A stretch of DNA of 64,000 nucleotides from positions 1,696,001 to 1,760,000 of the forward strand of contig OY771555.1 of the NCBI GenBank assembly GCA_963674785.1, in the 5' to 3' direction. The first letter of the stretch is position 1, and the number at the start of each line of letters is the position of its first letter. Source of the DNA: Caldisericia bacterium (lineage in GTDB: Bacteria > Caldisericota > Caldisericia > JAAYUI01). A model generated the notes under the pieces. It was not told the DNA's origin and did not search any database. It saw only the letters and a program-made list of their open reading frames with translations. Position numbers and translations under genes: made by a program. This document shows, in pieces, positions 30,695 through 48,661 of this stretch.

Positions 30695-31228
30695 TTATTT
30701 TATGTTTTTCTCACCGTCAAGATTTATAAAGCTTGACAAAATGTCGTTAAAAATCGAATAATGAAATTTGACTCCATAAAACCGATCCATATCACCCTTT
30801 TTTTGTCTTTTATATCTGTTTGCCCTTATCATCATCTGCAATTTGTCTGCATCATGTACAAGTTTTGCATCAGCTGTTTCGTTTTTTTGGTACTCAAGAA
30901 ACAGTTCCAACAAATCCTCATGGTTTGGTAAAATATCTGAAGCGACCTTTTTCTCAATACTTTTTTTATCTAAAAAGTTTGATGCAGATGGGGTTAGATC
31001 ACCTATAACGGATTCTGGTAAATCGTGAATAACTGCCATTTTTAATGCTTTCGACTCATCAACTCCATCAATATGTTTTGATATGAGCATCACTAAAAAG
31101 ATCACCCCAAAACAATGCGATGAAACTTTTTCAGCGTCAGCAACACCCTCAAGAACATATCCAGTCCTTGGGATTTCAGTCAAGTTTTCTGAGTGTATTA
31201 AAAGCCTTGCAATATCCTCATGTATCAT
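30695..31228 (-). CDS. HD-domain 5'-deoxynucleotidase-like hydrolase (YfbR/HDDC2 type)
   Basis: RTGY, E.V..H, HDLPE..GD and DADKL motifs. Confidence 0.85.
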   Translation of the reverse strand: MIHEDIARLLIHSENLTEIPRTGYVLEGVADAEKVSSHCFGVIFLVMLISKHIDGVDESKALKMAVIHDLPESVIGDLTPSASNFLDKKSIEKKVASDILPNHEDLLELFLEYQKNETADAKLVHDADKLQMMIRANRYKRQKKGDMDRFYGVKFHYSIFNDILSSFINLDGEKNIK

Positions 31229-32145
31229 TTTTTGTCAGCTAGATAATCTTTTAAAATATTGAATGATTTTTCGGCAAGAGGTGGAACCTTGCCATCTTCA
31301 TATGAGGGTTCATTAAAAAGAACTGATTCGGTTTTTGAGATATAATCTGGGTCACCATGAACAAACAATGAATACATCAAAGACATACAGGTCGAAATTT
31401 TTCTCATTCCAACCTGTTCTTTCGCGACACTTTCTAGTTCTGTATCCCATTTCATATACAGGTCTGATTCAATTTGAGTCCAAGCTGAATCGATTTTTTT
31501 AAAAATAATAAGAGCGTGTGGTTTATTCAGTTTTTTATCAAAGAGATCAGATATTGTTTTATCAACACAGATCAATTCTGAAAAACCGTCGGAGTCAACA
31601 TCTCGAATAACCCAAGGTTGGATGTCGTCTGAAATATAAAACTTATTAACTAGAGCAAAATCATCTATTTCTGCAGAAACTATTTCTCTAGAAAATGGGG
31701 AGAAATCATGGATAATTGTATAGATTGTATCTAAAGAGTTGTTATCAAATACTCCGTAGATATTTCCCTGGCTTCCCTTTGTCCAGCTTTCGTGAAAATG
31801 AAAACCATAGGCTGTTGGGATGGAGTGTATTATTTCAGCATTTCTCTTACCAACCCAATATACGATAAATCTTGAAGCATTCATTTCTCTTTCCAAAGGA
31901 GCATAGACTTGGAAGACAAATTGATGAGCTTCATCATCATAAACAACCCTATGCTCTGTCGGGGAAAAGCCTCTGAGTTGATTTTCTTCGTGATATGCAA
32001 CAAGAGTTTTTCCAAATGGTTGCTCATGACCAGGCTCACCACGCTTGATAACTACTTCAGAGTGATCTGCATAGACAGATGTTGAGAACAAAAGCAGTGC
32101 TAAAATGAATACAAAAAAGAATCGGGTGTTAGTTCGCAATTTCAA
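31225..32145 (-). CDS. Hypothetical secreted protein
   Basis: Signal peptide ending VYA; one DVDSDGFSEL (FG-GAP-like) motif; overlaps both neighbours, consistent with translational coupling. Confidence 0.65.
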   Translation of the reverse strand: MKLRTNTRFFFVFILALLLFSTSVYADHSEVVIKRGEPGHEQPFGKTLVAYHEENQLRGFSPTEHRVVYDDEAHQFVFQVYAPLEREMNASRFIVYWVGKRNAEIIHSIPTAYGFHFHESWTKGSQGNIYGVFDNNSLDTIYTIIHDFSPFSREIVSAEIDDFALVNKFYISDDIQPWVIRDVDSDGFSELICVDKTISDLFDKKLNKPHALIIFKKIDSAWTQIESDLYMKWDTELESVAKEQVGMRKISTCMSLMYSLFVHGDPDYISKTESVLFNEPSYEDGKVPPLAEKSFNILKDYLADKK

Positions 32146-32389
32146 ACCCGGTTGTAAGAATGATCACCCTATTGTGGAATACCTCAATCCATCCGTCTTC
32201 TATCTTGAAAACAACCTCACCTTTTGAGGTTTTGACCTTTATGTTTCCTTTTGACAATACGGCAACCATGTTTGAATGCTTTGGTAAGATTCCCCAATAG
32301 CCATCCTCAAGAGGAACTATAAGTGATATTGCCTCATAGTCCTCCTGTTTGGCTTCTGGTGTAATTATTGTTACAGTTAATTCATTCAT
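32129..32389 (-). CDS. atpC: ATP synthase epsilon subunit (beta-sandwich only)
   Basis: IITPE, G..GILP.H and GWIEV motifs; follows atpD; 86 aa. Confidence 0.9.
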   Translation of the reverse strand: MNELTVTIITPEAKQEDYEAISLIVPLEDGYWGILPKHSNMVAVLSKGNIKVKTSKGEVVFKIEDGWIEVFHNRVIILTTGFEIAN

Positions 32390-32394
32390 GAGAA

Positions 32395-33855
<1,461 letters not shown>

Positions 33856-34725
33856 TTATGCGGTCTCCTTGAGTGCCTCAGCACTGGAGGTGATTTCTGT
33901 TAATTCTTTAGTAATTGAGGCTTGTCTTGTTCTTTGATATTTGATAGTAAGTTTTTCAGAGAGTTCATCGGCATTTTCCGTTGCTCGATGCATGCTCATT
34001 CTTCTCATGGCCTGCTCCGATGCACTCGCTTCAAGTAATACCTTATAGATAAAAAGGTCAATGTATGTGTTTGTTAAGGAATCTATAATCTTTGCTGGTT
34101 CAGGTTTAAATATAAAATCCTCAACAAGTCTTTTTTTGCCCTTGGTTATTCTCGCCAAAGGAAGCATTTGTCTTACAACAGATTCTTGCTTCAAAACCGA
34201 CTGGAACTCCATATAGGCAAAATTAACCGATTGAATCTCACCATTGATATACATCTCTTTTATCTTCGATCCAATAAGCTGTGCATTATCAAAGGTTACT
34301 TTATCGAGCATGCCCGGATGACTAAAAACAATCTTGTTTCCATTTTTATCAAATTCTTTTGAGGTCTTCTTTGAGATAGTTCCAAGTAATACCTCAACGT
34401 CTGACTGTTCTATGAATCTTCTTGTGATTGATGTAATATTTGAATTGAAAGATCCACAAAAACCTCTGTCTGAGGTCAACGGAATCAGAAGGGTTTTTTC
34501 AATGGGACTCGATTCAAAAAGAGGACCAGTGTTCACATCAGCATGGATGTGATTTGCAATTGAGATGAGCATCTCTTGAAGTTTTTCAACAAATGGAACT
34601 GATTGCTCAACCTGTTTTCTGAGGTGATATATTTTTACAACGGACAACATCTCCATTGACCTTGTAATATGGGCAACAGATTTTACAGATGAAATTCGTC
34701 TTTTAAGGTCGCGAAGAGTTGCCAC
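33856..34725 (-). CDS. atpG: ATP synthase gamma subunit
   Basis: ITRSMEM, SDRGFCGSFN, ATENA and RQASITKEL.EI motifs. Confidence 0.97.
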   Translation of the reverse strand: MATLRDLKRRISSVKSVAHITRSMEMLSVVKIYHLRKQVEQSVPFVEKLQEMLISIANHIHADVNTGPLFESSPIEKTLLIPLTSDRGFCGSFNSNITSITRRFIEQSDVEVLLGTISKKTSKEFDKNGNKIVFSHPGMLDKVTFDNAQLIGSKIKEMYINGEIQSVNFAYMEFQSVLKQESVVRQMLPLARITKGKKRLVEDFIFKPEPAKIIDSLTNTYIDLFIYKVLLEASASEQAMRRMSMHRATENADELSEKLTIKYQRTRQASITKELTEITSSAEALKETA

Positions 34726-34728
34726 TTA

Positions 34729-36240
34729 TTATCCCTCAAATTCCCTATTTGCATCCTCAATGATAACAGAAACATAATCTTTTATGTCGTCAGTAAGTTT
34801 TGGTGAATGCGAAAGATCAGAAATGATGTTTGGATGGTTTGTTCTTGCAACATTTAAAAGTGTTTCTTCGTAATCTTTGACTTTGTGTTTTGGAACATCA
34901 TCAAAAGCTCCAAGTGAATATGCAAGAAGAACGAGAACCTGTTCTCCAACAGGGAAAGGAGAATACTGCTTCTGTTTTAGAAGCTCAACAAGCCTTTCGC
35001 CGCGAGAAAGTTTTCTCTGTGTTGTTGGATCAAGCTCAGCACCAAACTGAGCGAATGCCTTAAGATCGTTATACTGGGAGAGGTCAAGCTTGAGTGTACC
35101 ACCAACTTTTTTCATTGTTGGGATCTGTGCTGCACCACCAACCCTTGAAACAGACAAACCAACGTTTACGGCAGGTCTGATACCCTCATTGAAAAGCTCA
35201 TTTTCAAGGAAAATCTGACCATCAGTAATAGAAATCAAGTTGGTTGGAATATATTGTGAAATATCTCCGGCTTGTGTTTCGATAATTGGAAGAGCGGTGA
35301 TTGATCCACCACCCAGTTCACTCTTAAGCTTGGCTGCACGCTCAAGAAGCCTGGAATGGAGATAGAAAATGTCACCAGGATACGCTTCACGTCCGGGTGG
35401 TCTTCTAAGAAGAAGTGAGAGTTCTCTGTAAGCATCTGCATGTTTTGAGAGATCATCATAAACAATCAAAACATGTTTTCCCTGACGCATGTACTCTTCA
35501 GCGATTGCACACCCAACATAAGGGGCAATATACCTAACAGCTGGTGGATAATCGGCAAAAGTGGCAACAATGATAGAATAATCAAGAGCACCGTTATCCT
35601 GAAGGGATTTTACGATTCCTGCCATTGTTGAAGATTTCTGAGAGATACCAACATAGATACAGATAACATTCTGACCTTTTTGGTTGATGATGGTATCGGT
35701 TGCAATTGCTGTTTTACCAGTTTGCCTGTCACCAATGATCAACTCTCTCTGACCCCTTCCAATAGGTATCAAAGCATCGAGAACCTTCAAACCAGTTTGC
35801 AGAGCTTCATGAACCGGCTCACGGTCAACAACTGATGGAGCAGCGGTTTCAAGAGGAAGGTGTTTTGAAGGTGCCAAAGCCGTTTTTCCATCAATTGCTT
35901 TACCTGTGGGGTCGATAACCCTACCAAGCATCCCTTTTGAAAACGGAACAGATAAGACTCTTCCAGTTCTTGTGACTCGGTCACCTTCTTTTACGAACTT
36001 ATCGGATCCAAGAAGAACAACACCAATATACTTTGGTGTCATTGAGAGAACGAATCCTTCTATGCCACCTTCAAAATAAAGGATTTCACTGATAAAGGCA
36101 TCAGATAAGCCAGAAACCAAAGCGACACCATCACCACAATTCCGTACTGTACCAGAGTTCTCAATGACCGGTTTAAATGGCTTCTCAGAAAATGAGTCTG
36201 TCCATCCTTTAAGTATCGATTCAAGAGTATCGGACATCAT
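34729..36240 (-). CDS. atpA: ATP synthase alpha subunit
   Basis: [20 protein letters not shown] and SVSRVGG motifs. Confidence 0.98.
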
Positions 36241-37116
36241 TTACCTCAAATTTTCAGAGATGGTATGACTAACCATTCGAGCTACCGATGAATCAAAGAT
36301 AGTATCATCAAGATACATCTTTATTCCGGAGATGAGGTTCTCGTTAACCTGGAAATTCATACTTGGTTTGCTTCCAGTAAAATCACTCACGAATGTTTCA
36401 ATCTTTTTCTTCTGAGGATCTGAAAGTGCGACAGCAGTTTCTACCATTACTTTTTTGATTTTTCCAGTGCTCTTGAGTGCATCGCAGAGTGTTATCTCAT
36501 GATCGGTTATATCGCAAGCGGTGAGCTCAGAAAGCGTTTCGATGATATGATCGGTATGATATTCAATCGTGTTGCCATCAAAGACATTTGAGATAACTTT
36601 TGATGAAAGAACCTCAACAACGTCCTTTGAGCGTTTTTTAAGTTCCATGACGGTCATCTCACGTTCGCCTTTTGCTTCCTCTTCTGCTGATCTTACGATA
36701 TCCTTTGCTTCATCTCTTGCTTTTCCAAGAATATCTTCTTTTATTGCATCAGCATTTTTGGCAGCTTCAGCTCTTATTGTTCTTGCCTCAGTGATTGCTT
36801 CATCATGTTCTTTTGTTGCCTCATCAAGTTTTAGATTTGCTTGATTCTGAACTTCTTTTGCCTCATCCAAAACCTTTGTGGCAGCAGCCTTTCTCTCGGC
36901 AAGCATGTTTACCACTGGCTTGTAGAGGAACTTTTTAAGAAGGATGACCAAAAGAATAAGGTTTAAAACAACAAATAGAAATGTCCTAAGGTCAACGCCG
37001 AGGAGAGATGGATTAGCCATTTCAGCAGCATGTTCTACAGCACCTTCGGATGCATATACCGTTGGAATCAGCCAATTAGAAAAAGAATCCAATATGGATG
37101 TTAACCATGTAAACAT
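36241..37116 (-). CDS. atpF: ATP synthase subunit b fused to the C-terminal part of delta
   Basis: TM followed by KFLYKP...ERK b-subunit coiled coil, then delta-like VETAV.L...ENLISGI...DDTIFDSS; no separate atpH. Confidence 0.85.
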   Translation of the reverse strand: MFTWLTSILDSFSNWLIPTVYASEGAVEHAAEMANPSLLGVDLRTFLFVVLNLILLVILLKKFLYKPVVNMLAERKAAATKVLDEAKEVQNQANLKLDEATKEHDEAITEARTIRAEAAKNADAIKEDILGKARDEAKDIVRSAEEEAKGEREMTVMELKKRSKDVVEVLSSKVISNVFDGNTIEYHTDHIIETLSELTACDITDHEITLCDALKSTGKIKKVMVETAVALSDPQKKKIETFVSDFTGSKPSMNFQVNENLISGIKMYLDDTIFDSSVARMVSHTISENLR

Positions 37117-37125
37117 GGAGTCACC

Positions 37126-37422
37126 TTATATGACGAAAATCAAAACAAGAGCAACGGCAAGAGCATAAATTACAAGTGATTCGATAAGTGCGAGTGAAAG
37201 AATAAGGGATGTGAAGATGTCTTGTTGTGCCTCTGGCTGTCTTGCGATAGCATCAACTGCTGATGCTGCAGCTCTTCCCTGACCAAGTGCACCACCAAAT
37301 GCGGCAATTGCAATTGCGAGTGCTGCTGCGATTTTTGTGCCCCAATATGCAGCAGGTGCGGCAAACTTAAGCATCTCTGCTGTGTTACCATTGAAAACTT
37401 CTTTAAGAACGTTTAAATCCAT
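37126..37422 (-). CDS. atpE: ATP synthase c subunit
   Basis: GQG...ARQPEA...IESLVIY motifs. Confidence 0.97.
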
Positions 37423-37425
37423 TTT

Positions 37426-38304
37426 TTAGTGCTCTCCTTTTTCATGTGGCAAACCCAAATTAAGGTAAACCAGGAATAACATTGTAAATACGAGTGCCTG
37501 GATGAATCCTGTGAATATTCCCAAACCAAGGATCACAACAGGAACACCAAAAGCAACAAGTCCGGTTATAACTTCTAAAACGATATGCTCACCAGTCAAA
37601 TTTCCAAACAAACGGACGGCGAGTGAAAGAGGTCTGCTGATTTGCTCGAGAACATTGATCGGTAACATAAAAGAGAATGGGTGCATAAAGGTTTCTTTAA
37701 AGTAATGACCAAATCCCAAACCTTTTATTGACTGAGCATGAACGTATACGATTGCAAATAGTGCAAGGGCAAGTGTTACTGAGAGGTCTGTTGTCGGTGC
37801 AATAAGAATTGAAAACATCTTACTTTTTGCAATAAATGGAGCTGTCAATCCAGAAAGCAAACCGAGGAAGTTGGAGATAAGGATATATCCAATAAGTGTT
37901 GTTGTAACAACAACATACTTTTCGCCTCTTTTTCCAACGATGTTTTTTGTAAAACTCTGCATCATTGTGACGATTATCTCAGCAAGAACAGCCCTTGTTG
38001 AACCTCTTTTTTTAACACCAATCCCGATAAAGATGATCAGAAATGCGAAAACAATGGTTGCAATTCCAACAGCAAAGAATGTGTTTGGTAGATTTAACCC
38101 TCCTGCAATATTGTTTAGAAAAGAAACAGGAGTTGTCTGAGGACCAACAGCTATATGAAGACCAGTCTCTGGTTGAAGGGGTTGTCCAGAAAAACTTTCA
38201 TAGATAGCTGGGGTGAAAAAAACCAAGACATAGGCAGCAATGAAAAGCATCACCACCCAAAACGATTTTCTCTTAAATAATGGTACTTTTTTCTTATCAG
38301 GCAT
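37426..38304 (-). CDS. atpB: ATP synthase a subunit
   Basis: PTTDLS, SRPLSLAVRLFGN and IQALVF motifs; ATG at 38304 with GGAGG. Confidence 0.96.
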   Translation of the reverse strand: MPDKKKVPLFKRKSFWVVMLFIAAYVLVFFTPAIYESFSGQPLQPETGLHIAVGPQTTPVSFLNNIAGGLNLPNTFFAVGIATIVFAFLIIFIGIGVKKRGSTRAVLAEIIVTMMQSFTKNIVGKRGEKYVVVTTTLIGYILISNFLGLLSGLTAPFIAKSKMFSILIAPTTDLSVTLALALFAIVYVHAQSIKGLGFGHYFKETFMHPFSFMLPINVLEQISRPLSLAVRLFGNLTGEHIVLEVITGLVAFGVPVVILGLGIFTGFIQALVFTMLFLVYLNLGLPHEKGEH

Positions 38305-38584
38305 CTTTTCCTCCAGAGGATAATTTAATCCTGAACCATATCCACCATAATGCAAAACCAAGAGCAAAACCACCAAAGGTGGCAAGCAGCGCATAAATAT
38401 TGATGAATGCAGGCAAGAATAAAGCAGCTGATGCAATTAATCGAAGAGGATTTCCAAAAGGTTTTAAACCTTTGTCAATTTTTTTCTTTGACGAGATATA
38501 AACCCAGTGAAATTGAACAAAACCTGCACCTGTTCCCCAGATAATTCCACCAATTATCGATAATGTGATTTGTAAAGTTGTCAT
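38297..38584 (-). CDS. ATP synthase accessory membrane protein (AtpI/AtpR-like)
   Basis: 95-aa hydrophobic ORF between the AtpZ-like gene and atpB, overlapping both. Confidence 0.6.
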   Translation of the reverse strand: MTTLQITLSIIGGIIWGTGAGFVQFHWVYISSKKKIDKGLKPFGNPLRLIASAALFLPAFINIYALLATFGGFALGFALWWIWFRIKLSSGGKDA

Positions 38585-38798: not shown

Positions 38799-40241
38799 TT
38801 AACCAACAAAAATTTGGCTTGCTTTTTCAATAAGCATTACAAGTCCTGGAATCATAATCATTGTTGCGGTTCCAAGTGCGCATATTCCAGATGAAAGTGA
38901 AGCAAACGCATTCCCAAAATCTTTTTGGACGATTTCTTCATCGGGTTCATCAAGATACATTGCCCTTACAATGCCAAAGTAGTAGAACGCTGAAATAGCA
39001 GAGTTGACAACGGCAACAACCACTAGCCAGATGAGTTTTGCAGAAATTGCAGCCTTAAATACAAACAATTTCCCAAAGAAACCTGCTGCCCATGGAATAC
39101 CAAGAAGCGAAACAAGTGTTATAACCATCGTAATTGCAAGAGCTGGGTTCGTTTTTCCAAGTCCTGCAAAATGTTTTAATGATGAACCACCCCGTCTACC
39201 CTCAACAACTTTGATGATAGAGAATCCTGCAATATTCATCAATGCGTATGCTGTCACATACATGAGTATTCCAGCAGCACCTTGAGCAGCTAAATCTGTT
39301 CCAGGGTTGAAGGCGATTACAACAACACCCATCAAGATATACCCAACTTGAGCAATAGAACTATACGCAAATATCCTTTTTACATTGGTCTGCCATATTG
39401 CCGTGATATTTCCAAACGTCATCGATAATACAGAAATGATTAACACAACCCATCCAAAATTGGTTGCTAGGCTTGCAGGTAAAGCTGTTCCAACAAATCT
39501 CGCCATCACAATGAGTACACCGATTTTCGGTGCAACAGATATGAATGCGGTTGAAATTGGTGGAGCACCCTCGTATACATCCGGTGCCCAGAAATGGAAT
39601 GGGAAGGCAGCAACTTTGAAGAAAAGACCTGCAAATATGAATGTCAATCCCATATATTCAATTGGAAGACCTGAAAGCGAGAGGAAGAGCTGTGAGAAGA
39701 GCATTGTTTTTGTTGTTGTGAAGACAAGTGAGATTCCGTAAATGGTGATTGCTGAAGCAAAAGCACCAAGCAGGAAGTATTTTACAACAGCCTCTTTTGA
39801 GATCGAATCCCCCGTTTTCATTCCAGTAAGCATATAAAGCGGGATTGAGGTAATCTCAATTGCAAGATATACGATCATCAAACTTGTCGCTTGACACATC
39901 AACATAAGTCCAGAGATTGAGATAAGAATAAGGAACAAAAACTGTCCCTGTCTTTTTGAATCAGGAACAAACATATCGAAAGAAGAGAGGAAAATAGGCA
40001 ACGTTATCAGCAAAAGCAATCCTCTTGAATAAGTAGCAAACGAATCGGCAGTAAACAGAATGCTTGTGACCCCACCTGCCTGACCAACCAAAGCAATGAA
40101 TGAAGCGATCAAGATCAACATCGCCAGGATTCCATTTACAAACTTTTTCCCAGAGTATGGAATCAATGAAACAAGCAGAAGTATGCAAGCTCCAATGACT
40201 ACTATTGTTTCAGGGAGAAACGCGGAAAATTCCACAATCAC
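38799..40241 (-). CDS. nuoN: Complex I subunit N
   Basis: EA..KYF.LG, FKVAAFPFHFWAPDVYEGAP, KRI.AYSSIAQ.GY and GFFGK motifs. Confidence 0.96.
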   Translation of the reverse strand: MIVEFSAFLPETIVVIGACILLLVSLIPYSGKKFVNGILAMLILIASFIALVGQAGGVTSILFTADSFATYSRGLLLLITLPIFLSSFDMFVPDSKRQGQFLFLILISISGLMLMCQATSLMIVYLAIEITSIPLYMLTGMKTGDSISKEAVVKYFLLGAFASAITIYGISLVFTTTKTMLFSQLFLSLSGLPIEYMGLTFIFAGLFFKVAAFPFHFWAPDVYEGAPPISTAFISVAPKIGVLIVMARFVGTALPASLATNFGWVVLIISVLSMTFGNITAIWQTNVKRIFAYSSIAQVGYILMGVVVIAFNPGTDLAAQGAAGILMYVTAYALMNIAGFSIIKVVEGRRGGSSLKHFAGLGKTNPALAITMVITLVSLLGIPWAAGFFGKLFVFKAAISAKLIWLVVVAVVNSAISAFYYFGIVRAMYLDEPDEEIVQKDFGNAFASLSSGICALGTATMIMIPGLVMLIEKASQIFVG

Positions 40242-40247
40242 ACCCCC

Positions 40248-41753
40248 TTAGAGTATGCCTACAATTGAATTTGCAATCATAGAAAGGATTGGAGCTGGAT
40301 AGAGTCCAATAAAGAACACAAATGCAAATGGAGGAAGTGCTGCTATGAATTCAAGGAATGTTGCATCTTTAACTGTTTCAAATTTTTCCTGTGCTTTACC
40401 AAACATGACTCTCTGCATCATCCAAAGCATTACGCCGGCATTAACAACAAGACCAGCGATAGATGCCCATGCCCACCAGGAAACTGCACTAAACGCAGCC
40501 TGAAGTGAGAGGAATTCACCAACAAATCCTGAAAGAGCTGGAAGTCCAATTGAGGCAAATGATGCGATGATAAGCATGATTGCAATTACTGGAATCTTTC
40601 CTCCCATACCTGGAAGCTCAGAGATTTCTCTTGTATGAGTTCTTTCGTAGATATATCCAACCAAAAGGAAGAGTAGTCCAGTTGTGACACCGTGACTAAA
40701 CATTACAACGATTGCACCCTGAAGTGCAATTGCAGAACCTGTAATCATGTATGCACCGATTGCAAGAAGGACAAATCCCATATGGTTAACAGATGTGTAA
40801 GCAACAAGTTTTTTGAGGTCTTTTTGGACAAGCGCACAAAGAGCTCCATAAACAATTCCTATTACACCGAGCACACCAATAACAGGCCCCCAGAAGGCAA
40901 AAACACCATCCATGTTCTTGAAGATTCCAACACCAAGTCTGATGATTCCATAACCACCCATCTTAAGAAGAACACCGGCAAGCATGATTGAGATTGGCGC
41001 TGGAGCTTGAACGTGAGCATCTGGTAACCAGGTATGGAACGGGAATGATGGAACTTTTACAAGGAATCCAAATAACATTGCACCAAAGACCGGAAGAGCA
41101 AGAGTTCCAAGGCTAACTATTAGATTCGCATTGTTTGTGAGTTCAACAATTGAGAATGTCCCAGTTTTGAAATATATTGCCAGGATTCCAATAAGCATTA
41201 TCAGTGATGCAATAAGTGTATAGATGAAGAATTTGATTGATGCGTATTGTCTCTGTTTTCCTCCCCAAATTGCTATGAGGAAATACATTGGAACCAATAC
41301 TACTTCCCAGAACACATAGAACAAAACAAGGTCAAGAGCAAGGAAAACACCAATAAGTCCGGTTTCAAGAAGAAGGAATAATGAGAAGTATTCTTTTACA
41401 CGGTCTTTGATGTAGAATGATGCGAAACATGCAGTGACTGAAAGGAGAGTTGTGAGGAAGAGCATAAGCATCGACATTCCATCAATTCCGAGGTGGTAAT
41501 TCATTCCGATTGAAGGTACCCATTCAATTATGTGTTCTAATTGAAATGCCATTAATGGAGCTTCTACAGTACCAATTTTAAACAGCGACCAGATATAGAT
41601 TGATAATCCAAGGGTAAGTAGTGTTATGACAACAGAAAACCACCTGATCAGCTTGTGGTTGTCTTTTGGAAGCAAAAGAACAAGCAATGAACCCAATAGA
41701 GGCAGGAAAGTAACCGCCGATAATAGTATTCCAGAATTGAAATTCATATTCAA
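40248..41753 (-). CDS. nuoM: Complex I subunit M
   Basis: FYVFWE, VKVP.FPFHTWLPDAHVQAP, LLKMG.YG and SGFVGEF motifs. Confidence 0.96.
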   Translation of the reverse strand: MNMNFNSGILLSAVTFLPLLGSLLVLLLPKDNHKLIRWFSVVITLLTLGLSIYIWSLFKIGTVEAPLMAFQLEHIIEWVPSIGMNYHLGIDGMSMLMLFLTTLLSVTACFASFYIKDRVKEYFSLFLLLETGLIGVFLALDLVLFYVFWEVVLVPMYFLIAIWGGKQRQYASIKFFIYTLIASLIMLIGILAIYFKTGTFSIVELTNNANLIVSLGTLALPVFGAMLFGFLVKVPSFPFHTWLPDAHVQAPAPISIMLAGVLLKMGGYGIIRLGVGIFKNMDGVFAFWGPVIGVLGVIGIVYGALCALVQKDLKKLVAYTSVNHMGFVLLAIGAYMITGSAIALQGAIVVMFSHGVTTGLLFLLVGYIYERTHTREISELPGMGGKIPVIAIMLIIASFASIGLPALSGFVGEFLSLQAAFSAVSWWAWASIAGLVVNAGVMLWMMQRVMFGKAQEKFETVKDATFLEFIAALPPFAFVFFIGLYPAPILSMIANSIVGIL

Positions 41754-41759
41754 ATCCTC

Positions 41760-43886
41760 CTAATTAATTGCAAGGATAATTGCAAAAACAAGTAGTATAA
41801 CAACAAGTGAACCAAACATCACTGCTGCATAATTTGGCAGATACCCAGTTTGAATTTTTCGAGTCTTTTTTCCAGCAAACCCAAAAATCCAGGCAGAACC
41901 ATTTACAAACCCATCAACAACTTTTTCATCAAACCATTTGGCAATTTTGCTGAGTTTGACGCCAAGCCAGCCAACACCATTAACCATTCCATCAACGATG
42001 TGAGAATCAAACCAGTTAACAAGTTTGGCAAACTGAAGTGTTAACCATGCTGCACCGTTTACCATTCCATCAATTACGACAGCATCAAATCTGCTACAGA
42101 ATCCTGCGAACCATAGGAATGGTTTGACAGCAATGAGTGTCCATAGCTCATCCATGAACCAAGCTCTCTTGAAGAATATATAGAGCGGTTTGAGAGCTCT
42201 CATGAGTTTTACTTTTAGCTGAGGTTTCCAAACATAAACAAGTAAACCAACAAGGATTCCAGCAAAAACAAGTCCAATTGAACCAAAGAGAAGTGGTTTG
42301 TTCATTATTCCCCAGGTTTCATAGTGCTCTAGAATATGATGACTCATCTCATGGGTCATATAGCCTTTGCCAAGGAATTTTTGGAACCAGTTTGATGATA
42401 GACCCCAGAATGGAACACCGATGAAACCAATAAGTGCTGCCAAAGATCCAAGCACAATAAGAGGAACCCTCGATCTCCATGATCCTTCATGAGCATGGTT
42501 TTCTTTTCTTGGTTTTCCAAAAAATGTGAGCCAAACACATCTTGTCATGTAATATGGGGTTAGGAAGGCACCAATCAATGCTAGTATTAGAGCAATCCAA
42601 GCCGCTTGATGATGATGTGCTGAATGGAAAACTGCACCTATTATTGCATCTTTGCTCCAGAATCCAGCAAAAAGTGGGAACCCCGCAAGTGCAAGTGAAC
42701 CAATCACAAACGTCCAACCCGTAACGGGCATCTTTTTGATGAGTCCACCCATCTCATGCATATTTTTTGTATGTGTTGCGTGAATTACTGAACCTGAACC
42801 AAGGAACAATAACCCCTTAAAGAATGCGTGTGTCATAAGATGGAAGAGTGCTGCGACAAATCCAATAAGTGCGAATTGTGGTTCACCATGGTGGATTCCA
42901 CCAAAAACTGCACCAAGTCCCATAACCATATATCCAAGCTGGCTTATGGTTGAAAATGCGAGAACTTTTTTTATCTCCGCTTGCACGGTGGCAATTGTCG
43001 CCCCCATGAAAGCGGTTATCGCTCCTATCATCATAACAATGGTTAGAGCTGTTCCAGTCGTGTCCAGCATGAAAATTGGCATTGTTCTTGCTACAAGGTA
43101 GATACCTGCGGCAACCATTGTCGCTGCGTGAATGAGTGCAGAAACCGGAGTTGGGCCTTCCATCGCATTTGGGAGCCAAACATGGAGTGGGAATTGTGCT
43201 GATTTACCCATTGCACCGGCAAAGATAAGAAGAGGGATAACAATCAGCATAGTTTGGCTATATCCGGCAAGTTTTCCTGGTAAGTCGATAAAATTCAGGT
43301 TCCCTGTTACCGCAAAGATTGCAAATATTCCGAGGAATAAAAATACATCCCCGACTTTTGTTACAAAGAAAGCTTTTTTTGCTGCCTGGTAGACAGAACG
43401 TTCTGCAAACCAGAAACCAATGAGCAGATATGAACAAAGTCCAACAAGCTCCCAGAATGCAAACATCTGGAGAAGGTTTGAGGCAGTAACAACACCAAGC
43501 ATGGCAACAGTAAAGAGCTGAAGTTCTGCGTAGTATCTTGCAATTCCAGGATCACCCTTCATGTAGTCAATTGAGAAGAGGTGGACAAGGAACGAAACAA
43601 GGGATACCACGATCAGCATAATTACTGAAAGAGAATCAATATGGAACCCGAAATCAAGTGAATATTTTCCACTTTCAAGCCACTTGAAAGTTACAGGATC
43701 AAAAGAGCTTCCATGATTGGCAACAAGAATGAAAAGTACAATAGAAAGAATCAGTGAGATTCCAACTGTTATTGTACCGAGATATTTTGCCCATCCTTTT
43801 GCAATCTTTCCACATAATCCGATTGTTATAAATCCGATAAGTGGAATTCCAAGTATTAAAATTGGTAATAATGTGTGTAATGCCAT
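41760..43886 (-). CDS. nuoL: Complex I subunit L with extended lateral helix
   Basis: WELVG.CSYLLIGFW, GKSAQFPLH.WLP.AMEGPTPVSALIHAATMV, HAFFK and QTG motifs; 708 aa. Confidence 0.97.
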   Translation of the reverse strand: MALHTLLPILILGIPLIGFITIGLCGKIAKGWAKYLGTITVGISLILSIVLFILVANHGSSFDPVTFKWLESGKYSLDFGFHIDSLSVIMLIVVSLVSFLVHLFSIDYMKGDPGIARYYAELQLFTVAMLGVVTASNLLQMFAFWELVGLCSYLLIGFWFAERSVYQAAKKAFFVTKVGDVFLFLGIFAIFAVTGNLNFIDLPGKLAGYSQTMLIVIPLLIFAGAMGKSAQFPLHVWLPNAMEGPTPVSALIHAATMVAAGIYLVARTMPIFMLDTTGTALTIVMMIGAITAFMGATIATVQAEIKKVLAFSTISQLGYMVMGLGAVFGGIHHGEPQFALIGFVAALFHLMTHAFFKGLLFLGSGSVIHATHTKNMHEMGGLIKKMPVTGWTFVIGSLALAGFPLFAGFWSKDAIIGAVFHSAHHHQAAWIALILALIGAFLTPYYMTRCVWLTFFGKPRKENHAHEGSWRSRVPLIVLGSLAALIGFIGVPFWGLSSNWFQKFLGKGYMTHEMSHHILEHYETWGIMNKPLLFGSIGLVFAGILVGLLVYVWKPQLKVKLMRALKPLYIFFKRAWFMDELWTLIAVKPFLWFAGFCSRFDAVVIDGMVNGAAWLTLQFAKLVNWFDSHIVDGMVNGVGWLGVKLSKIAKWFDEKVVDGFVNGSAWIFGFAGKKTRKIQTGYLPNYAAVMFGSLVVILLVFAIILAIN
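41856..42089 (-). repeat. Three tandem 78-nt (26-aa) repeats in the NuoL amphipathic helix
   Basis: FDAVVIDGMVNGAAWLTLQFAKLVNW / FDSHIVDGMVNGVGWLGVKLSKIAKW / FDEKVVDGFVNGSAWIFGFAGKKTRK; Phe codons begin at 42089, 42011 and 41933. Confidence 0.93.
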
Positions 43887-43894
43887 TTATCCAC

Positions 43895-44191
43895 CTACCA
43901 CTTTAGAAGATTGAACTTCTCAAGGGTAATCCAACCCTTGGCACGATACATTGCTACAATTGCAGCAAGTCCAATAATTGTCTCGGCAGCAGCAACAGCA
44001 ACAGCAAAGATGACCATTGTATGAGCGACACCTGGATCAGGGATTGAGTATGCAGTCGCAAGGAATGTGAGGTTTGCGCCATTGAGCATCAGTTCAATAC
44101 ACATCAGTATTCGAATTGCATTTCTGAGACTGAGTGCACCAATTACCCCAATACAGAAGAGGGCAGCACCCACAAAGAATAAGAAATTCAT
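43895..44191 (-). CDS. nuoK: Complex I subunit K
   Basis: LMCIELMLN and AAAE..IGLA motifs. Confidence 0.95.
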   Translation of the reverse strand: MNFLFFVGAALFCIGVIGALSLRNAIRILMCIELMLNGANLTFLATAYSIPDPGVAHTMVIFAVAVAAAETIIGLAAIVAMYRAKGWITLEKFNLLKW

Positions 44192-44763
44192 ACCTCATCC
44201 TCCTTTTTCTTAGCCATTTCAATTCCACCAATAAGAGCTGCAAGGATCATGATTGATGTCATCTCAACCGGGATTGCATATGGAGTACTTTCTCCTTCTT
44301 TGCCGAACATTACTCTGCTAATTGATTCAATAGATGGTTCAGGATTAACCAATTTTGATGGATGGATACCAGTAGGTAGTCTTCCAGCGACACTTGGATC
44401 TGTTGTAGTCTGAGTTGCAGTTTGTAGGAAGAAGAAGGCAATTGTAAGAAACATTGTCACACCAACTGCGACACCAACTCCAACCTGTCTATGAATATGA
44501 AGAAGCTGGCTACCCTTTTTATCCCTTGTGAACATGATTGCAAAAAGGATAAGGATTGAGATAGCCCCGACATAGATTGCAACCTGGGCAGCGGCAATAA
44601 AGTCAGCGTGTATCGAGATATATATGACCGCAATTGATAAGAGACACGCAATCAATGCCATGATCGCATGAACAATGTTTTTCAGGAAGATTGAGAGAAA
44701 GGCAAAAATGATTACAGGTGCAGAGGCGATGAAGAATATTAATCTTGACTCAATAAATCCCAT
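44188..44763 (-). CDS. nuoJ: Complex I subunit J
   Basis: QVAIYVGAI.IL.LFAIM and PVE.TS..L.ALIG motifs. Confidence 0.94.
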   Translation of the reverse strand: MGFIESRLIFFIASAPVIIFAFLSIFLKNIVHAIMALIACLLSIAVIYISIHADFIAAAQVAIYVGAISILILFAIMFTRDKKGSQLLHIHRQVGVGVAVGVTMFLTIAFFFLQTATQTTTDPSVAGRLPTGIHPSKLVNPEPSIESISRVMFGKEGESTPYAIPVEMTSIMILAALIGGIEMAKKKEDEV

Positions 44764-45179
44764 TACACTTCACCTCCAGGCTGATTTGAAAGATCATCTA
44801 TGTTGTAAATCATGCCCTCTCTGGAAAATGATGCAAGTTCGTAAAAATTCCCAGCATGAAGTGCATCAAAAGGACAAACCTCAACACATATCCCGCAGAA
44901 CATGCATTGCTGAATCTTTACGGTGTATTCCTCAGGGTAAAATTTTCCTTCATCATTTTTTGCTTTTTTGATTTCTATCGCATGAACCGGACAGTTTCTG
45001 GCACAGATTCCACATGCTGTGCATTTCAACTTTCCGTTTTCATCAGAAACCAACCTCATGAGTCCAAAAAATCTTGGATTCATCGGTTGTTTCTTCTTTG
45101 GATACCTGAGAGTGAGCTTTTTCCTGAAAAGATGCTTCAGGGTAAGAAGTAGAGATAGTACAATTCCTTTTCCTGTCAT
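44763..45179 (-). CDS. nuoI: Complex I subunit I (2x[4Fe-4S])
   Basis: CTACGICARNCP and CMFCGICVEVCP motifs; start taken at 45179. Confidence 0.95.
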   Translation of the reverse strand: MTGKGIVLSLLLTLKHLFRKKLTLRYPKKKQPMNPRFFGLMRLVSDENGKLKCTACGICARNCPVHAIEIKKAKNDEGKFYPEEYTVKIQQCMFCGICVEVCPFDALHAGNFYELASFSREGMIYNIDDLSNQPGGEV

Positions 45180-45186
45180 ATCACCC

Positions 45187-46242
45187 TCACATTCCTGCCA
45201 AAGCATACTTGAATATCTCAAGTATGTGTGGATTTAGAACAATAAATGCGGTATACAACATATTTGCAACGGATAGTGGGAGTAAGAATTTCCATGCAAC
45301 ATCCATAAGCTGATCGGCTCTAATTCGAGGAAGCGACCTGGATACCCAGATTATCAGAACAACAATCGAACATGATTTTAGAATAAACCAGAGTGCTGGT
45401 GTTATATGTGGTCCAAGGCAAGTACCAAGAATACCGGGCATATATCCACCACCAAGGTATAATGCTGTTACCAATGCACCTGTAACAAATAAGTATGTAT
45501 ACTCTGCGAAGAAGAAGAATACGAACCTGATACCCGCAAACTCAACATTGTATCCAGCTACGAGCTCCGACTCACCTTCTGCAAGGTCAAATGGAATTCT
45601 GAAAACTTCAGCAAGTGATGCAATAAAGAATATTGCAAACCCTAAAAACTGGGGAATTATAAACCAAATCTTTTGAACTCCACCGATGATGCTTATGTTC
45701 ATTGAACCAGCCATCATAACAACACAAAGCATTGCAATTGTTTTAGGGACTTCATAACTTATTTCCTGAGCTGCCGATCTTACTGCTCCAAGAAGAGAAA
45801 ACTTGTTTCCAGATGACCATCCACCAACAAGAATACCGATAACACTAATGGACATAATCGCAGAAATCATAAGGATTCCAACGGATGAATTCGATGGAAC
45901 AAGCGGAGTTACAACTGCTTTTCCCGCAACATGTGTTACCGAAGTTGCAATAGGTATCAAAGCAAACACAATAAACGCAGGCACAAAAGTTATGAGTGGA
46001 GTGTAGGTATAAAGGAATTTGTCTGCCAGTTTTGGCATGACATCACCTTTACCAAGTAGCTTAACAGCATCTGCAAGTGGCTGGAACAATCCCCACGGTC
46101 CAACTTCCATTGGTCCAAGTCTCTGTTGAATCCAACCTAAAAACTTTCTTTCTACAAGAGTGAACGCAAGAGCGATGACCATAACAAACATGAACATCCC
46201 AATAGCAATTCCTGTTACAATCAATATATTCAATATGTTCAT
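45187..46242 (-). CDS. nuoH: Complex I subunit H
   Basis: ERK..G.IQ.R.GP, QP.ADAVKL, ISYE and PFDL.EGESELV.G motifs. Confidence 0.96.
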   Translation of the reverse strand: MNILNILIVTGIAIGMFMFVMVIALAFTLVERKFLGWIQQRLGPMEVGPWGLFQPLADAVKLLGKGDVMPKLADKFLYTYTPLITFVPAFIVFALIPIATSVTHVAGKAVVTPLVPSNSSVGILMISAIMSISVIGILVGGWSSGNKFSLLGAVRSAAQEISYEVPKTIAMLCVVMMAGSMNISIIGGVQKIWFIIPQFLGFAIFFIASLAEVFRIPFDLAEGESELVAGYNVEFAGIRFVFFFFAEYTYLFVTGALVTALYLGGGYMPGILGTCLGPHITPALWFILKSCSIVVLIIWVSRSLPRIRADQLMDVAWKFLLPLSVANMLYTAFIVLNPHILEIFKYALAGM

Positions 46243-46246
46243 TCGA

Positions 46247-47356
46247 TCACCTGTCTGCCTCGCCCATTGTTGGCGCAATAGAAGCAAAAGTTGCAATAAC
46301 ATCAGGGATCTGAATTCCCTTGATGATATCCGGGACTACTCGAATGTTGCTGAAGCTAGGAGCACGGATCTTCAATCGATATGGATTTGTTGACCCATCT
46401 GAAACAAGATACACTCCGAGCTCACCAATTGGGGCTTCGACTCTTGTGTAAACTTCACCCTTTGGAGGTTTTATTACTTTTGGAACTTTAGCCATGATGT
46501 CACCATCAGGCAGTTTTGAAAGGATTTGCTCAACAATATGAATGGACTGATATATCTCGTCATATCGAACCATATATCTTGAGAGGGTATCACCTTCGTT
46601 TCTTGTTATAACCTTGAACTCAAGTTTATCGTAAACTGAATAAGGTTCATCCATTCGAAGATCTCTTGCTACACCCGAACCCCTTAGAACTGGCCCCGAA
46701 CAACCATACTCAACTGCAAGGTCAGCAGGCAAAACACCGATTCCTTTTGTTCTTGCAAGGAATATCTCGTTTTTCTGCATCAAGTCACCATATTCTGGCA
46801 TCCTGTCTTTGAGATAATGGATAAATCTATCAATATCTGACAAAAATCCCTCAGGGATATCAGTTTTGACGCCACCGAACCTCATCCAGTTAAAAGTCAT
46901 TCTAGAACCTGAAACTGCAACAAAGAACTCAAGGAGATATTCTCGTTCACGAAGAGCGTATGTCATTGGGGTCATTGAAGCGAGATCGAGTCCCTGTGCA
47001 CCGATGTTTACAAGATGGGCTGCGATTCGATTGAGCTCCATCATAAGAACTCTCAGGTATTCTGCTCTTTCTGGGACTTCAATTCCCATGAGTTTCTCGA
47101 CTGCTGCAACATATGGATATTCATTCAAAAAACCAGCCAAGTAATCAAGCCTATCCATGTATGGGATAAACTGGAAATATGTGAGATTCTCGGCTATCTT
47201 TTCGATTCCTCTGTGAAGATATCCAAAAACGGGAGTACTGTTTACGACAACCTCACCATCTAATTCGGTTTTTAATCGGAAAACACCGTGAGTCGCCGGA
47301 TGGTGTGGACCGATATTCAGTTTCAATGTGTCTGTACAAATAGTCTGTTCGCTCAC
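46247..47356 (-). CDS. nuoD: Complex I subunit D
   Basis: GP.HP.THG, GYLHRGIEK, DRLDY and GE.DR motifs; no Ni-binding CxxC pairs. Confidence 0.95.
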   Translation of the reverse strand: MSEQTICTDTLKLNIGPHHPATHGVFRLKTELDGEVVVNSTPVFGYLHRGIEKIAENLTYFQFIPYMDRLDYLAGFLNEYPYVAAVEKLMGIEVPERAEYLRVLMMELNRIAAHLVNIGAQGLDLASMTPMTYALREREYLLEFFVAVSGSRMTFNWMRFGGVKTDIPEGFLSDIDRFIHYLKDRMPEYGDLMQKNEIFLARTKGIGVLPADLAVEYGCSGPVLRGSGVARDLRMDEPYSVYDKLEFKVITRNEGDTLSRYMVRYDEIYQSIHIVEQILSKLPDGDIMAKVPKVIKPPKGEVYTRVEAPIGELGVYLVSDGSTNPYRLKIRAPSFSNIRVVPDIIKGIQIPDVIATFASIAPTMGEADR

Positions 47357-47365
47357 ATCATCCTC

Positions 47366-47797
47366 CTAATCAGTTTCCTTGAACTCTTTCCTAAGAGGAA
47401 AATCTGTAAATCCCTCAGGAGTCAGTATTCTCTCAAGATTTGGATGATTGGTAAATTCAATTCCAAACATATCAAAGACTTCACGTTCAAGATAATCAGC
47501 AGCCATCCATGAAGGTGTTATACTTGGAATAACAGGATTTTCTTTAGAAACGAAAGAGTACACCCAAATCTTCTTTTTATGCTTCCAATCATCAAGGATA
47601 TAGACAACATCAAATCCATCATCTCTGCATTTTGCGGATAACATTGTTAAAAAAGAAAAGCCATTGTTTTTGAGAGCAAGGATTTTTTCAACAATCTGCT
47701 CTGGCTCAACGCGAATCATCAATTCAGTCTCAGAACCTTCGACGAGCTCGGTTTTTATGCCTGTTTTCTCAAAAATTAACTTACTAAGCTCTGACAT
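47366..47797 (-). CDS. nuoC: Complex I subunit C
   Basis: [17 protein letters not shown]...FPLRK motif. Confidence 0.95.
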
Positions 47798-48305
47798 GAT
47801 TCCTCCCGAGATTTTTTCGAGTTTTCATTATCTTTTCTTCGAGTTGAAGCATGGCAAACTGCAAAGCCTCTGGTCTTGGTGGACACCCAGGAATATACAC
47901 ATCAACCGGGATAATCTTGTCAACACCCTTTACAACAGAGTAACTATCAACAAAAGGGCCACCAGAACATGCACAAGCACCCATAGCAAGCACCCATTTT
48001 GGATTTGGAATCTGTTCATAAAGGAGCTGTGTGGGTTCAGCCATCTTCTTGGTAATAGTACCGGCAACAATCATGACATCACACTGTCTTGGTGTGGGTC
48101 TGAAAAAGCTTCCTAGCCTATCGAAATCATATCTTGGCATCCATGATTGAATCATCTCAAATGCGCAACACGCAGTTGCAAAGGTGAGAGGCCAAAGTGA
48201 ATTCTTTCGCCCCCAAGCAAGCAACCAATCAACGCTTGTGAGAAAAACTGCACCTTTGCCATCGGATAATACAGGATCAAGAGTTCTTGATTCTTTTAAT
48301 CCCAT
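47784..48305 (-). CDS. nuoB: Complex I subunit B
   Basis: [20 protein letters not shown] and PGCPPRPE motifs. Confidence 0.96.
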
Positions 48306-48661
48306 TTCAAAAGACCCCTTCCCCATGCGTACAACCATCCAACAAGGATGATCCCAATGAACAAAAAGACCTCAAAAAATGCATATAAACCAAGCACATT
48401 CGCCTTAACTGCCCATGGATAGAGAAATATTGCTTCAACATCAAATGCTACAAAAATAAGCAAGAATGTAAGATATCTGACGTTGAATTTTACATCGGCA
48501 TCTTTCTCCGGATACATTCCGCACTCGTACGGAGTCAAAGCTTTCTCACCTTTGATCCTCTTTGGTCTAAGAAGGAACGAAAGGAAGTACGCAACAAGAC
48601 CAAAACCGATGCCAACTAGTACAAAAATCCCTATGTTTACATAGTTATTTAGATATTCCAT
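48296..48661 (-). CDS. nuoA: Complex I subunit A
   Basis: PYECG, FDVEA.FLYPWA and G.LKW motifs. Confidence 0.96.

Follow-up and report, generated by a model that had tools for sequence, protein, structure and literature searches.

A predicted three-unit lateral helix in the NuoL of a Caldisericia complex I operon with one nuoM gene

How much energy respiration yields, and how far reverse electron flow can reach, is set by the number of ions that complex I moves for each pair of electrons; this number has hitherto been treated as fixed by gene content. The 2M variant of complex I combines an insertion of about 26 residues in the lateral helix (HL) of NuoL with a second nuoM gene (Chadwick et al. 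2018, as described in the available text of PMC9040806 and PMC7117926). The 64,000-nucleotide stretch of a Caldisericia bacterium analysed here (contig OY771555.1, positions 1,696,001 to 1,760,000; referred to as the window) carries a nuo operon whose NuoL has this insertion twice over, and the second nuoM that marks the L-M-M-N gene order of 2M operons is absent from the operon, from the genome and from all 11 genomes of the same family. What, then, does so long a helix hold in place? We describe the repeated unit, compare unit number with nuoM copy number in other operons, and weigh the possibility that the helix acts as a ruler for several copies of one NuoM.

The repeated unit of the lateral helix

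The nuoL gene encodes a protein with PF00662 and PF00361 domains that matches the NCBIfam equivalog NF005141 at 646 bits (cut-off 556) and also passes TIGR01974 (626 bits; cut-off 407.5). Alignment with the E. coli and solved NuoLs, together with profiles of hydrophobicity and hydrophobic moment, suggests that its C-terminus consists of transmembrane helix 15 (TM15), an amphipathic lateral helix and TM16. The parts are as follows.

41760..43886, minus strand: nuoL, 708 aa, with an antiporter-like core, TM15, HL and TM16
42090..42194, minus strand: HL start, about residues 565-599, including the WFMDELW anchor (D579, E580)
42012..42089, minus strand: HL unit 1, F600-W625, hydrophobic moment 0.98 and mean hydrophobicity 0.73 (computed from one residue earlier)
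41934..42011, minus strand: HL unit 2, F626-W651, hydrophobic moment 1.27
41856..41933, minus strand: HL unit 3, F652-K677, aligned with the only unit that E. coli and other one-unit NuoLs have
41763..41855, minus strand: I678-Q679-T680-G681, TM16 (about residues 684-706) and the C-terminus, mean hydrophobicity 2.29

The three tandem units that the original prediction placed at the NuoL C-terminus were found at exactly 26 residues each, filling F600-K677 (41856-42089). Each opens with F-D-x-x-h-h-D-G-x-V-N-G, and the unit motif D-x-x-h-h-D-G-x-h-N begins at residues 601, 627 and 653. Both ends of the helix are conserved: the HL start aligns around E. coli NuoL D542, D579 and E580 are near-invariant and Q679 and G681 conserved among 81 NuoLs, and the TM16 end aligns with the C-terminus of Paracoccus NuoL. 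The WFMDELW anchor lies 103 residues from QTG, versus 48 in E. coli NuoL and 51-54 in the one-unit NuoLs of a metagenome sample. This confirmed both the count of 103 and the excess of about two units that had been read from the sequence, since by alignment the HL extends 52 residues beyond E. coli NuoL and beyond every solved NuoL aligned. When aligned with MAFFT, the 1-, 2-, 3- and 4-unit forms are set apart by clean 26-column block gaps, unit 2 being the block that two-unit NuoLs lack.

We considered whether deletions elsewhere might restore a normal HL length. None was found in NuoL by alignment or segment length: the core SKD motif is 167 residues from the anchor (class medians, 151-171), and the 30 residues from QTG to the C-terminus, versus 26-29 elsewhere, offer no shortening to offset the longer helix. 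This explanation was therefore rejected. We also rejected the possibility that the extra units are transmembrane helices, since the units have a mean hydrophobicity of -0.1 to 0.7 with a moment of 1.0-1.3, in contrast to 1.8-2.3 for the mean hydrophobicity of TM15 and TM16, and since odd numbers of added units are common, where odd numbers of added transmembrane helices would flip the topology. The HL units are thus predicted to be amphipathic surface helices.

A 78-nt period had been proposed along with the 26-residue one. The period holds in the protein, but Tandem Repeats Finder detected no DNA-level repeat at 41700-42300, and the duplication must therefore be old. This, and the fact that relatives share the three units, led us to reject both a tandem repeat of recent origin in the DNA and an artefact of assembly; the units are kept in 11/11 genomes of the same Caldisericia family (3 genera; NuoL 63-81% identical). 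The 84-residue HL stretch has no insertion or deletion in any of the 11 and a ratio of nonsynonymous to synonymous substitution (dN/dS) of 0.08-0.11, which indicates purifying selection on all three units. This NuoL is present in 11/93 genomes of the phylum, all within that one family. The whole stretch is also carried, with 0 differences, by a separate DNA run, which may itself be the source of the genome. In a wastewater metatranscriptome run (X5), one 863-nt contig spans 41493-42307 without a gap and differs at 51 positions; it derives from a relative and lies in an RNA library, which is no proof of transcription, and the stretches left uncovered in runs X3-X5 carry no information. Taken together, these data show that the helix in the window is the lateral clamp helix of NuoL, built of three tandem copies of a 26-residue module.

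Antiporter-like genes and helix length

The operon runs in the order nuoABCDHIJKLMN on the minus strand, from 48661 down to 38799, and beside nuoL it comprises the following genes.

43895..48661, minus strand: nuoA, B, C, D, H, I, J and K, without nuoE, F and G between nuoD and nuoH
40248..41747, minus strand: nuoM, 499 aa, ATG at 41747, TIGR01972 at 512 bits (cut-off 263.8)
38799..40241, minus strand: nuoN, 480 aa, TIGR01770 at 374 bits (cut-off 332.6)

The set nuoA, B, C, D, H, I, J, K, L, M and N is thus complete; nuoD and nuoH overlap, and the nuoM Shine-Dalgarno sequence AGGAGGA overlaps the nuoL stop codon. PF01512 (NuoF) had no match in the whole genome, the NuoE and NuoG families not having been searched separately, and the gene content predicts an 11-subunit complex I without the NADH module. 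NuoD has T. thermophilus Nqo4 as its best match (E=7e-101), with the HPxTHGV and DYL stretches, which we take to be quinone-site residues, aligned identically; it thus appears to be of the quinone-site 49-kDa type.

The single nuoM and single nuoN that had been noted in the operon were borne out across the genome. PF00361 matched nuoL, nuoM and nuoN only in the single-contig 2.23-Mb assembly, and phmmer and custom NuoL and NuoM hidden Markov models matched the same 3/4335 open reading frames (ORFs) at E<=10. The 11 family genomes likewise hold L, M and N only, apparent fourth PF00361 matches being split NuoL matches or one 18-bit match below the cut-off. One option raised by the original prediction, that genes elsewhere encode two further NuoM- or MrpD-like subunits, is accordingly refuted for this assembly and scarcely credible for the organism; only a missing replicon could carry such genes (CheckM-type completeness is 92%, though the genome is one contig).

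We next compared unit number with nuoM copy number in three samples. Sample 1 comprises 80 genome loci found by HL motif pattern and ranked against the three-unit query, and is enriched for multi-unit forms; sample 2 comprises 80 metagenome loci found with generic NuoL patterns (query P0071) and is less biased; sample 3 comprises 18 Anaerolineae operons chosen from a PF00361 scan of 41 genomes. Counts in samples 1 and 2 hold among the matches listed, and kin within the samples are not independent. Sample 1 contained two Caldisericia three-unit loci, 64 two-unit NuoLs, one one-unit NuoL and four that were unscorable. The two-unit NuoL was followed by visible L-M-N in 53/64 and by L-M at a contig end in seven, and no true L-M-M-N was found among the 64; apparent double-M arrangements at two loci (L027 and L100) were rejected as frameshifted single genes. 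Sample 2 held 32 one-unit, 23 two-unit and 30 unscorable NuoLs, with L-M-N visible after 18 of the 23 and no L-M-M-N. The premise that one 26-residue insertion goes with one extra nuoM is therefore not general.

True L-M-M-N operons, five in number, occurred in sample 3, each with two units and an anchor-to-QTG distance of 78-81 residues. Its single-nuoM operons had two units in eight cases, three in two (L192 and L200) and four in one (L189), with two unscorable. In the Anaerolineae genomes with three or four units, one weak, partial PF00361 ORF lies elsewhere in addition to L, M and N; in the four-unit genome it scores 44 bits. Only three PF00361 genes were present in a Chlorobiaceae genome with a two-unit NuoL; both Chlorobiaceae NuoL loci examined are two-unit, and in each of the 41 Chlorobiaceae genomes searched there is one nuoL-M-N cluster, with no other PF00361 gene in 19 of them. 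The two-unit helix with a single nuoM is thus common, in Chlorobiaceae, Ignavibacteria, Acidobacteriota and Anaerolineae, and true L-M-M-N operons are a small subset with the two-unit helix length. As single-nuoM two-unit forms are so common, helix length alone does not imply the unusual machine that had been expected whatever the explanation.

The lengths themselves are discrete. Of the best 150 matches obtained for the HL region among 1.84 billion representatives, 103 could be scored: the anchor-to-QTG distance was 77-78 in 94 of them and 103-106 in six, with one each at 129, 142 and 155. Length classes step by 26 residues, with no wider spread in the multi-unit classes than in the one-unit class. 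The clamp helix therefore occurs with 1, 2, 3, 4 and perhaps 5 units, and its length is independent of nuoM gene number.

Several variants of the helix were recorded in these searches. The three-unit Anaerolineae NuoL of L200 (4873-6921, minus strand, genome G055; single-nuoM operon) has near-identical second and third units, which points to a recent duplication. The four-unit NuoL of L189 (5211-7451, minus strand, genome G074), likewise from Anaerolineae and a single-nuoM operon, has an anchor-to-QTG distance of 132. Two NuoL fragments are singletons on short metagenome contigs and may reflect assembly error: P0165 (1.9-kb contig; distance 155, five units, four of them near-identical) and P0135 (1.1-kb contig; distance 129, four units). 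In P0071 (four units) and P0033 (three) the middle units follow a variant pattern, YVDxxxVDFIVN, and repeat about every 27 residues. P0085 and P0234 carry about 65 residues between two HL units, an insert with two long hydrophobic stretches that resembles a transmembrane hairpin embedded in the helix.

Helix class was associated with operon type. nuoD and nuoH were adjacent in 40/42 and 12/12 scorable operons with a two-unit NuoL, and were separated by at least 600 bp in 9/10 one-unit operons; in these samples the multi-unit HL accompanies operons without nuoEFG, in which nuoD and nuoH adjoin. Nine metagenome contigs (L109, L114, L128, L133, L150, L155, L164, L170 and L183) carry two nuo clusters tail to tail, one with a two-unit and the other with a one-unit NuoL, from which it follows that one organism keeps both helix classes side by side.

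A FastTree phylogeny of the NuoL core, computed with the HL excluded (138 rows), placed the window NuoL with Caldisericia loci (support 100) and contained a clade of 63 rows, all multi-unit (support 99); three or more units arose at least three times. The L-M-M-N NuoLs were nested among single-nuoM NuoLs in this tree, an arrangement that the NuoM and NuoN trees did not confirm, as there the five L-M-M-N operons and the single-nuoM operons are sister clades, with the second NuoM (M2) on a separate long branch. We conclude only that both sister clades share the two-unit helix, and claim no more than one transition, in either direction. Helix length gives no indication of whether M2 is present.

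What the extra units might hold

Residues P564, L565 and N566 of E. coli NuoL form the HL kink closest to NuoM (Belevich et al. 2011, in the available part of PMC3274701). They align with V656-V657-D658 of the window NuoL, inside the unit motif. The strict motif is found in every unit of 57/94 two-unit and 3/4 three-unit NuoLs from single-nuoM operons, and in only one unit of 33/94 two-unit NuoLs. Neither unit has it in the L-M-M-N operons (0/5), all five of which form one clade and hence count as one event; this is expected if the units there touch two different paralogues.

We therefore asked whether the HL could be a modular ruler on which each 26-residue unit offers one docking site for NuoM. 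As helix, a unit would measure about 39 Å, and the extension would add about 78 Å (52 residues x 1.5 Å), or two antiporter-like subunit widths. As the genome has a single nuoM gene, the same NuoM would have to occupy both extra positions as well, giving an L-M-M-M-N arm with one NuoL, three NuoM-type and one NuoN site along a taut helix; the number of putative pump sites would rise from four to six. One mutational step, in which a 78-nt unit is duplicated or lost, would then alter the ion-per-electron gear. We regard a modular ruler that places extra copies of one NuoM as our preferred reading, at slightly under an even chance. Its wider form is offered tentatively: unit number would set the number of NuoM copies, with an L-M-M-M-N arm of six pump sites from three genes in the Caldisericia family and L-M-M-N arms from one nuoM in the two-unit enzymes of Chlorobi, Ignavibacteria, Acidobacteriota and Anaerolineae. 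On this view, 2M operons as already described would represent a later stage, the repeated position having gained a paralogue of its own.

Several observations argue for the ruler. The HL is extended by 52 residues without compensation; lengths step by 26 in tight classes, and the one-unit length is set by spanning NuoM and NuoN. The 78-81 residues of the five L-M-M-N operons are those of the single-nuoM two-unit forms. The unit itself appears to be the NuoM contact, since the kink residues align inside its motif, and all three units keep that motif under apparent purifying selection. The predicted units are amphipathic surface helices rather than transmembrane ones, and conservation of both HL ends, including QTG-TM16, argues for the usual docking next to NuoN. 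The four-unit helix, which occurs with only L, M, N and the weak 44-bit ORF, is by the dimensions of the membrane arm too long for merely docking further along a standard arm. Lastly, the multi-unit HL accompanies adjacent nuoD and nuoH. The genome has three 2-oxoacid:ferredoxin oxidoreductases, and the 11-subunit complex I probably takes electrons from ferredoxin. Transfer from ferredoxin to menaquinone yields roughly 70-80 kJ per two electrons, compared with about 47 for NADH to menaquinone (estimated from textbook potentials), which would make extra pump sites affordable at modest membrane potential.

Other points weigh against this proposal. We know of no relative of complex I in which one gene fills several antiporter positions, and moving six to eight ions per two electrons would be feasible only at a low membrane potential or with the enzyme running in reverse. 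The genome search, which covered four families, gave no quinol oxidase (cytochrome bd, NrfD, haem-copper oxidase and MqnA/D had no match; other reductases were not searched), and there is one UbiA-family prenyltransferase match. Comparison of one- and two-unit operons by Shine-Dalgarno strength gave no sign of a higher NuoM dosage: nuoM has the strongest site in 13/21 one-unit and 35/57 two-unit operons, in a weak test that sets start codons by alignment and includes several phyla that use such sites little. Similarity between NuoL and NuoM is inconsistent, with medians of 355-416 vs 261 for the large multi-unit clade and 263 vs 261 in the metagenome sample. Unit number also shifts quickly, the sisters L192 and L189 having 3 and 4 units; this turnover, seen again in L200, could equally mean that extra units are tolerated without consequence, and the 26-residue steps may partly reflect origin by duplication and not the fit of a partner.

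These points bear on the alternative of a standard L-M-N arm. The extra units would there prolong the clamp along the surface, either resting on the membrane or making a detour, and would serve stability or lipid contact without adding pump sites. We consider this somewhat unlikely, but a serious contender. Two-unit helices with one nuoM are very common, which makes a mundane role the cautious reading, and E. coli HL tolerates insertions of 6-7 residues at some sites (in the available part of PMC3274701). Variation in unit number among close relatives, including by recent duplication, fits as well, as do the absent dosage signal, the inconsistent similarity proxy and the two-unit NuoLs that keep the strict motif in only one unit. 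However, slack should drift, and the length classes are as tight as the one-unit form; the three units are conserved across three genera with a dN/dS of about 0.1 and no indel; the same helix length recurs in operons with a second NuoM gene; and a simple out-and-back hairpin is impossible when the added units are odd in number.

The remaining alternatives give the helix another partner or another end point. Lineage-specific small membrane subunits occur in other relatives of complex I, and the extra length might span one or two non-antiporter membrane proteins, encoded outside the operon or as yet unrecognised, which we hold to be improbable. A candidate exists in orf95, a small membrane protein without a family match between nuoN and atpB that is conserved in a second genus, but it is more simply taken as an ATP synthase gene I-like protein; moreover, the nuo operon here contains no conserved unknown gene, other multi-unit operons have no regular extra gene (gaps in L-M-N occur at few loci, e.g. 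L030, L036, L054 and L070), and the repeated unit is the NuoM-contact motif. We give little weight to the idea that TM16 docks further along, beside NuoJ, K, A or H or a neighbouring complex, so that the helix clamps the whole membrane domain or a dimer. By the dimensions of the arm the NuoJ/A-H region could lie within reach of a helix longer by one unit (about 39 Å), and the multi-unit HL is a trait of operons without nuoEFG, which might have a different heel; against this, the QTG-TM16 segment is conserved with one-unit NuoLs, four-unit and possibly five-unit helices would overshoot a standard arm, and the L-M-M-N operons share their helix length with the single-nuoM sister clade. It seems very unlikely that the helix clamps the Fo sector of the co-encoded ATP synthase: the order nuoN-orf95-atpB is conserved in two genera, but this is gene adjacency only, and multi-unit helices occur in many phyla, at loci that show no atp genes after nuoN (not systematically tabulated).

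The genes downstream of nuoN are these.

32129..38584, minus strand: orf95, then atpB, atpE, an atpF-atpH fusion, atpA, atpG, atpD and atpC, directly downstream of nuoN

The nuoN-orf95-atp order is conserved in a second genus (L024 and L025). orf95 (38297-38584, minus strand) is a 95-aa hydrophobic ORF between nuoN and atpB without a Pfam or NCBIfam match, conserved at the same position in both of these loci (E of about 1e-28); it may encode an ATP synthase gene I-like protein, and it overlaps a long atpB ORF that starts at TTG and matches Pfam only from residue 127 onwards. At 36241-37116 on the minus strand, one 291-aa ORF fuses ATP synthase subunit b (PF00430) with delta/OSCP (PF00213). Directly after atpC, a 306-aa ORF (31225-32145, minus strand) with a hydrophobic N-terminus has no Pfam match and is conserved at the same position in L024 and L025.

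If the ruler proposal is true, pump number would be encoded in a helix and not in a gene count, a new way to tune a core bioenergetic machine; if it is not, the argument that leads from helix insertions to extra pumps has to be revised. The question is now testable, as cultured bacteria, e.g. green sulfur bacteria and Melioribacter, have two-unit, single-nuoM enzymes.

Relation to known systems

The best solved relative of the window NuoL is T. elongatus NdhF1 (E=2.8e-125). No solved NuoL-type chain with more than one unit was found among 14 matches: in five alignments both units of the query profile fall on one and the same stretch of the chain, the coordinates of the other nine have space for a single unit, and E. 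coli was aligned directly. The literature search, which had supplements and Chadwick et al. 2018 outside its scope, yielded no account of an HL insertion that occurs twice, of a "3M" complex or, for Chlorobi, of a multi-unit HL, nor any paper that treats helix unit number as a variable. As far as the available texts go, a single insertion with a second nuoM and an insertion without an extra NuoM are already known, and no description of a double insertion was found.

The canonical NuoL/Nqo12/ND5 HL (E. coli 3RKO, T. thermophilus 4HEA, Paracoccus 8QBY and T. elongatus NdhF1 6HUM) belongs to the same family and shares with the window NuoL the DELY-type anchor after TM15, the VDGxVNG-type unit and the QTG-TM16 end, but has one unit versus three. 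Cyanobacterial and chloroplast NDH-1, with 11 core subunits and ferredoxin-dependent, resembles the window complex in being without NuoEFG, whereas its NdhF1/NdhF has a single unit; NDH-specific subunits were not searched for here. MrpA of the Mrp antiporter (6Z16, 7QRU) likewise has a homologous antiporter-like core followed by a lateral helix. In contrast to the window NuoL, it continues into a further membrane domain, and the window operon is a complete nuoA-N set with a quinone-type NuoD.

Closer likenesses are found among complexes that carry the insertion. 2M complex I, as far as its available descriptions go, resembles the window in the insertion of about 26 residues and in operon context, but the window has no second nuoM gene and two insertions, not one; in addition, all units of the window NuoL keep the canonical motif, which neither unit does in the five L-M-M-N operons. 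Complex_I_1 and Complex_I_2 of Ca. Manganitrophaceae have a 26-residue NuoL HL insertion without an extra NuoM, and Complex_I_3 is a five-pump complex (Yu et al. 2022, in the available text of PMC9040806). In the same text, insertion-bearing complexes are said possibly to accommodate extra pumps already or to be in evolutionary transition. By that account the Ca. Manganitrophaceae have a single insertion, whereas the Caldisericia family combines two insertions with one complex I and three antiporter-like genes.

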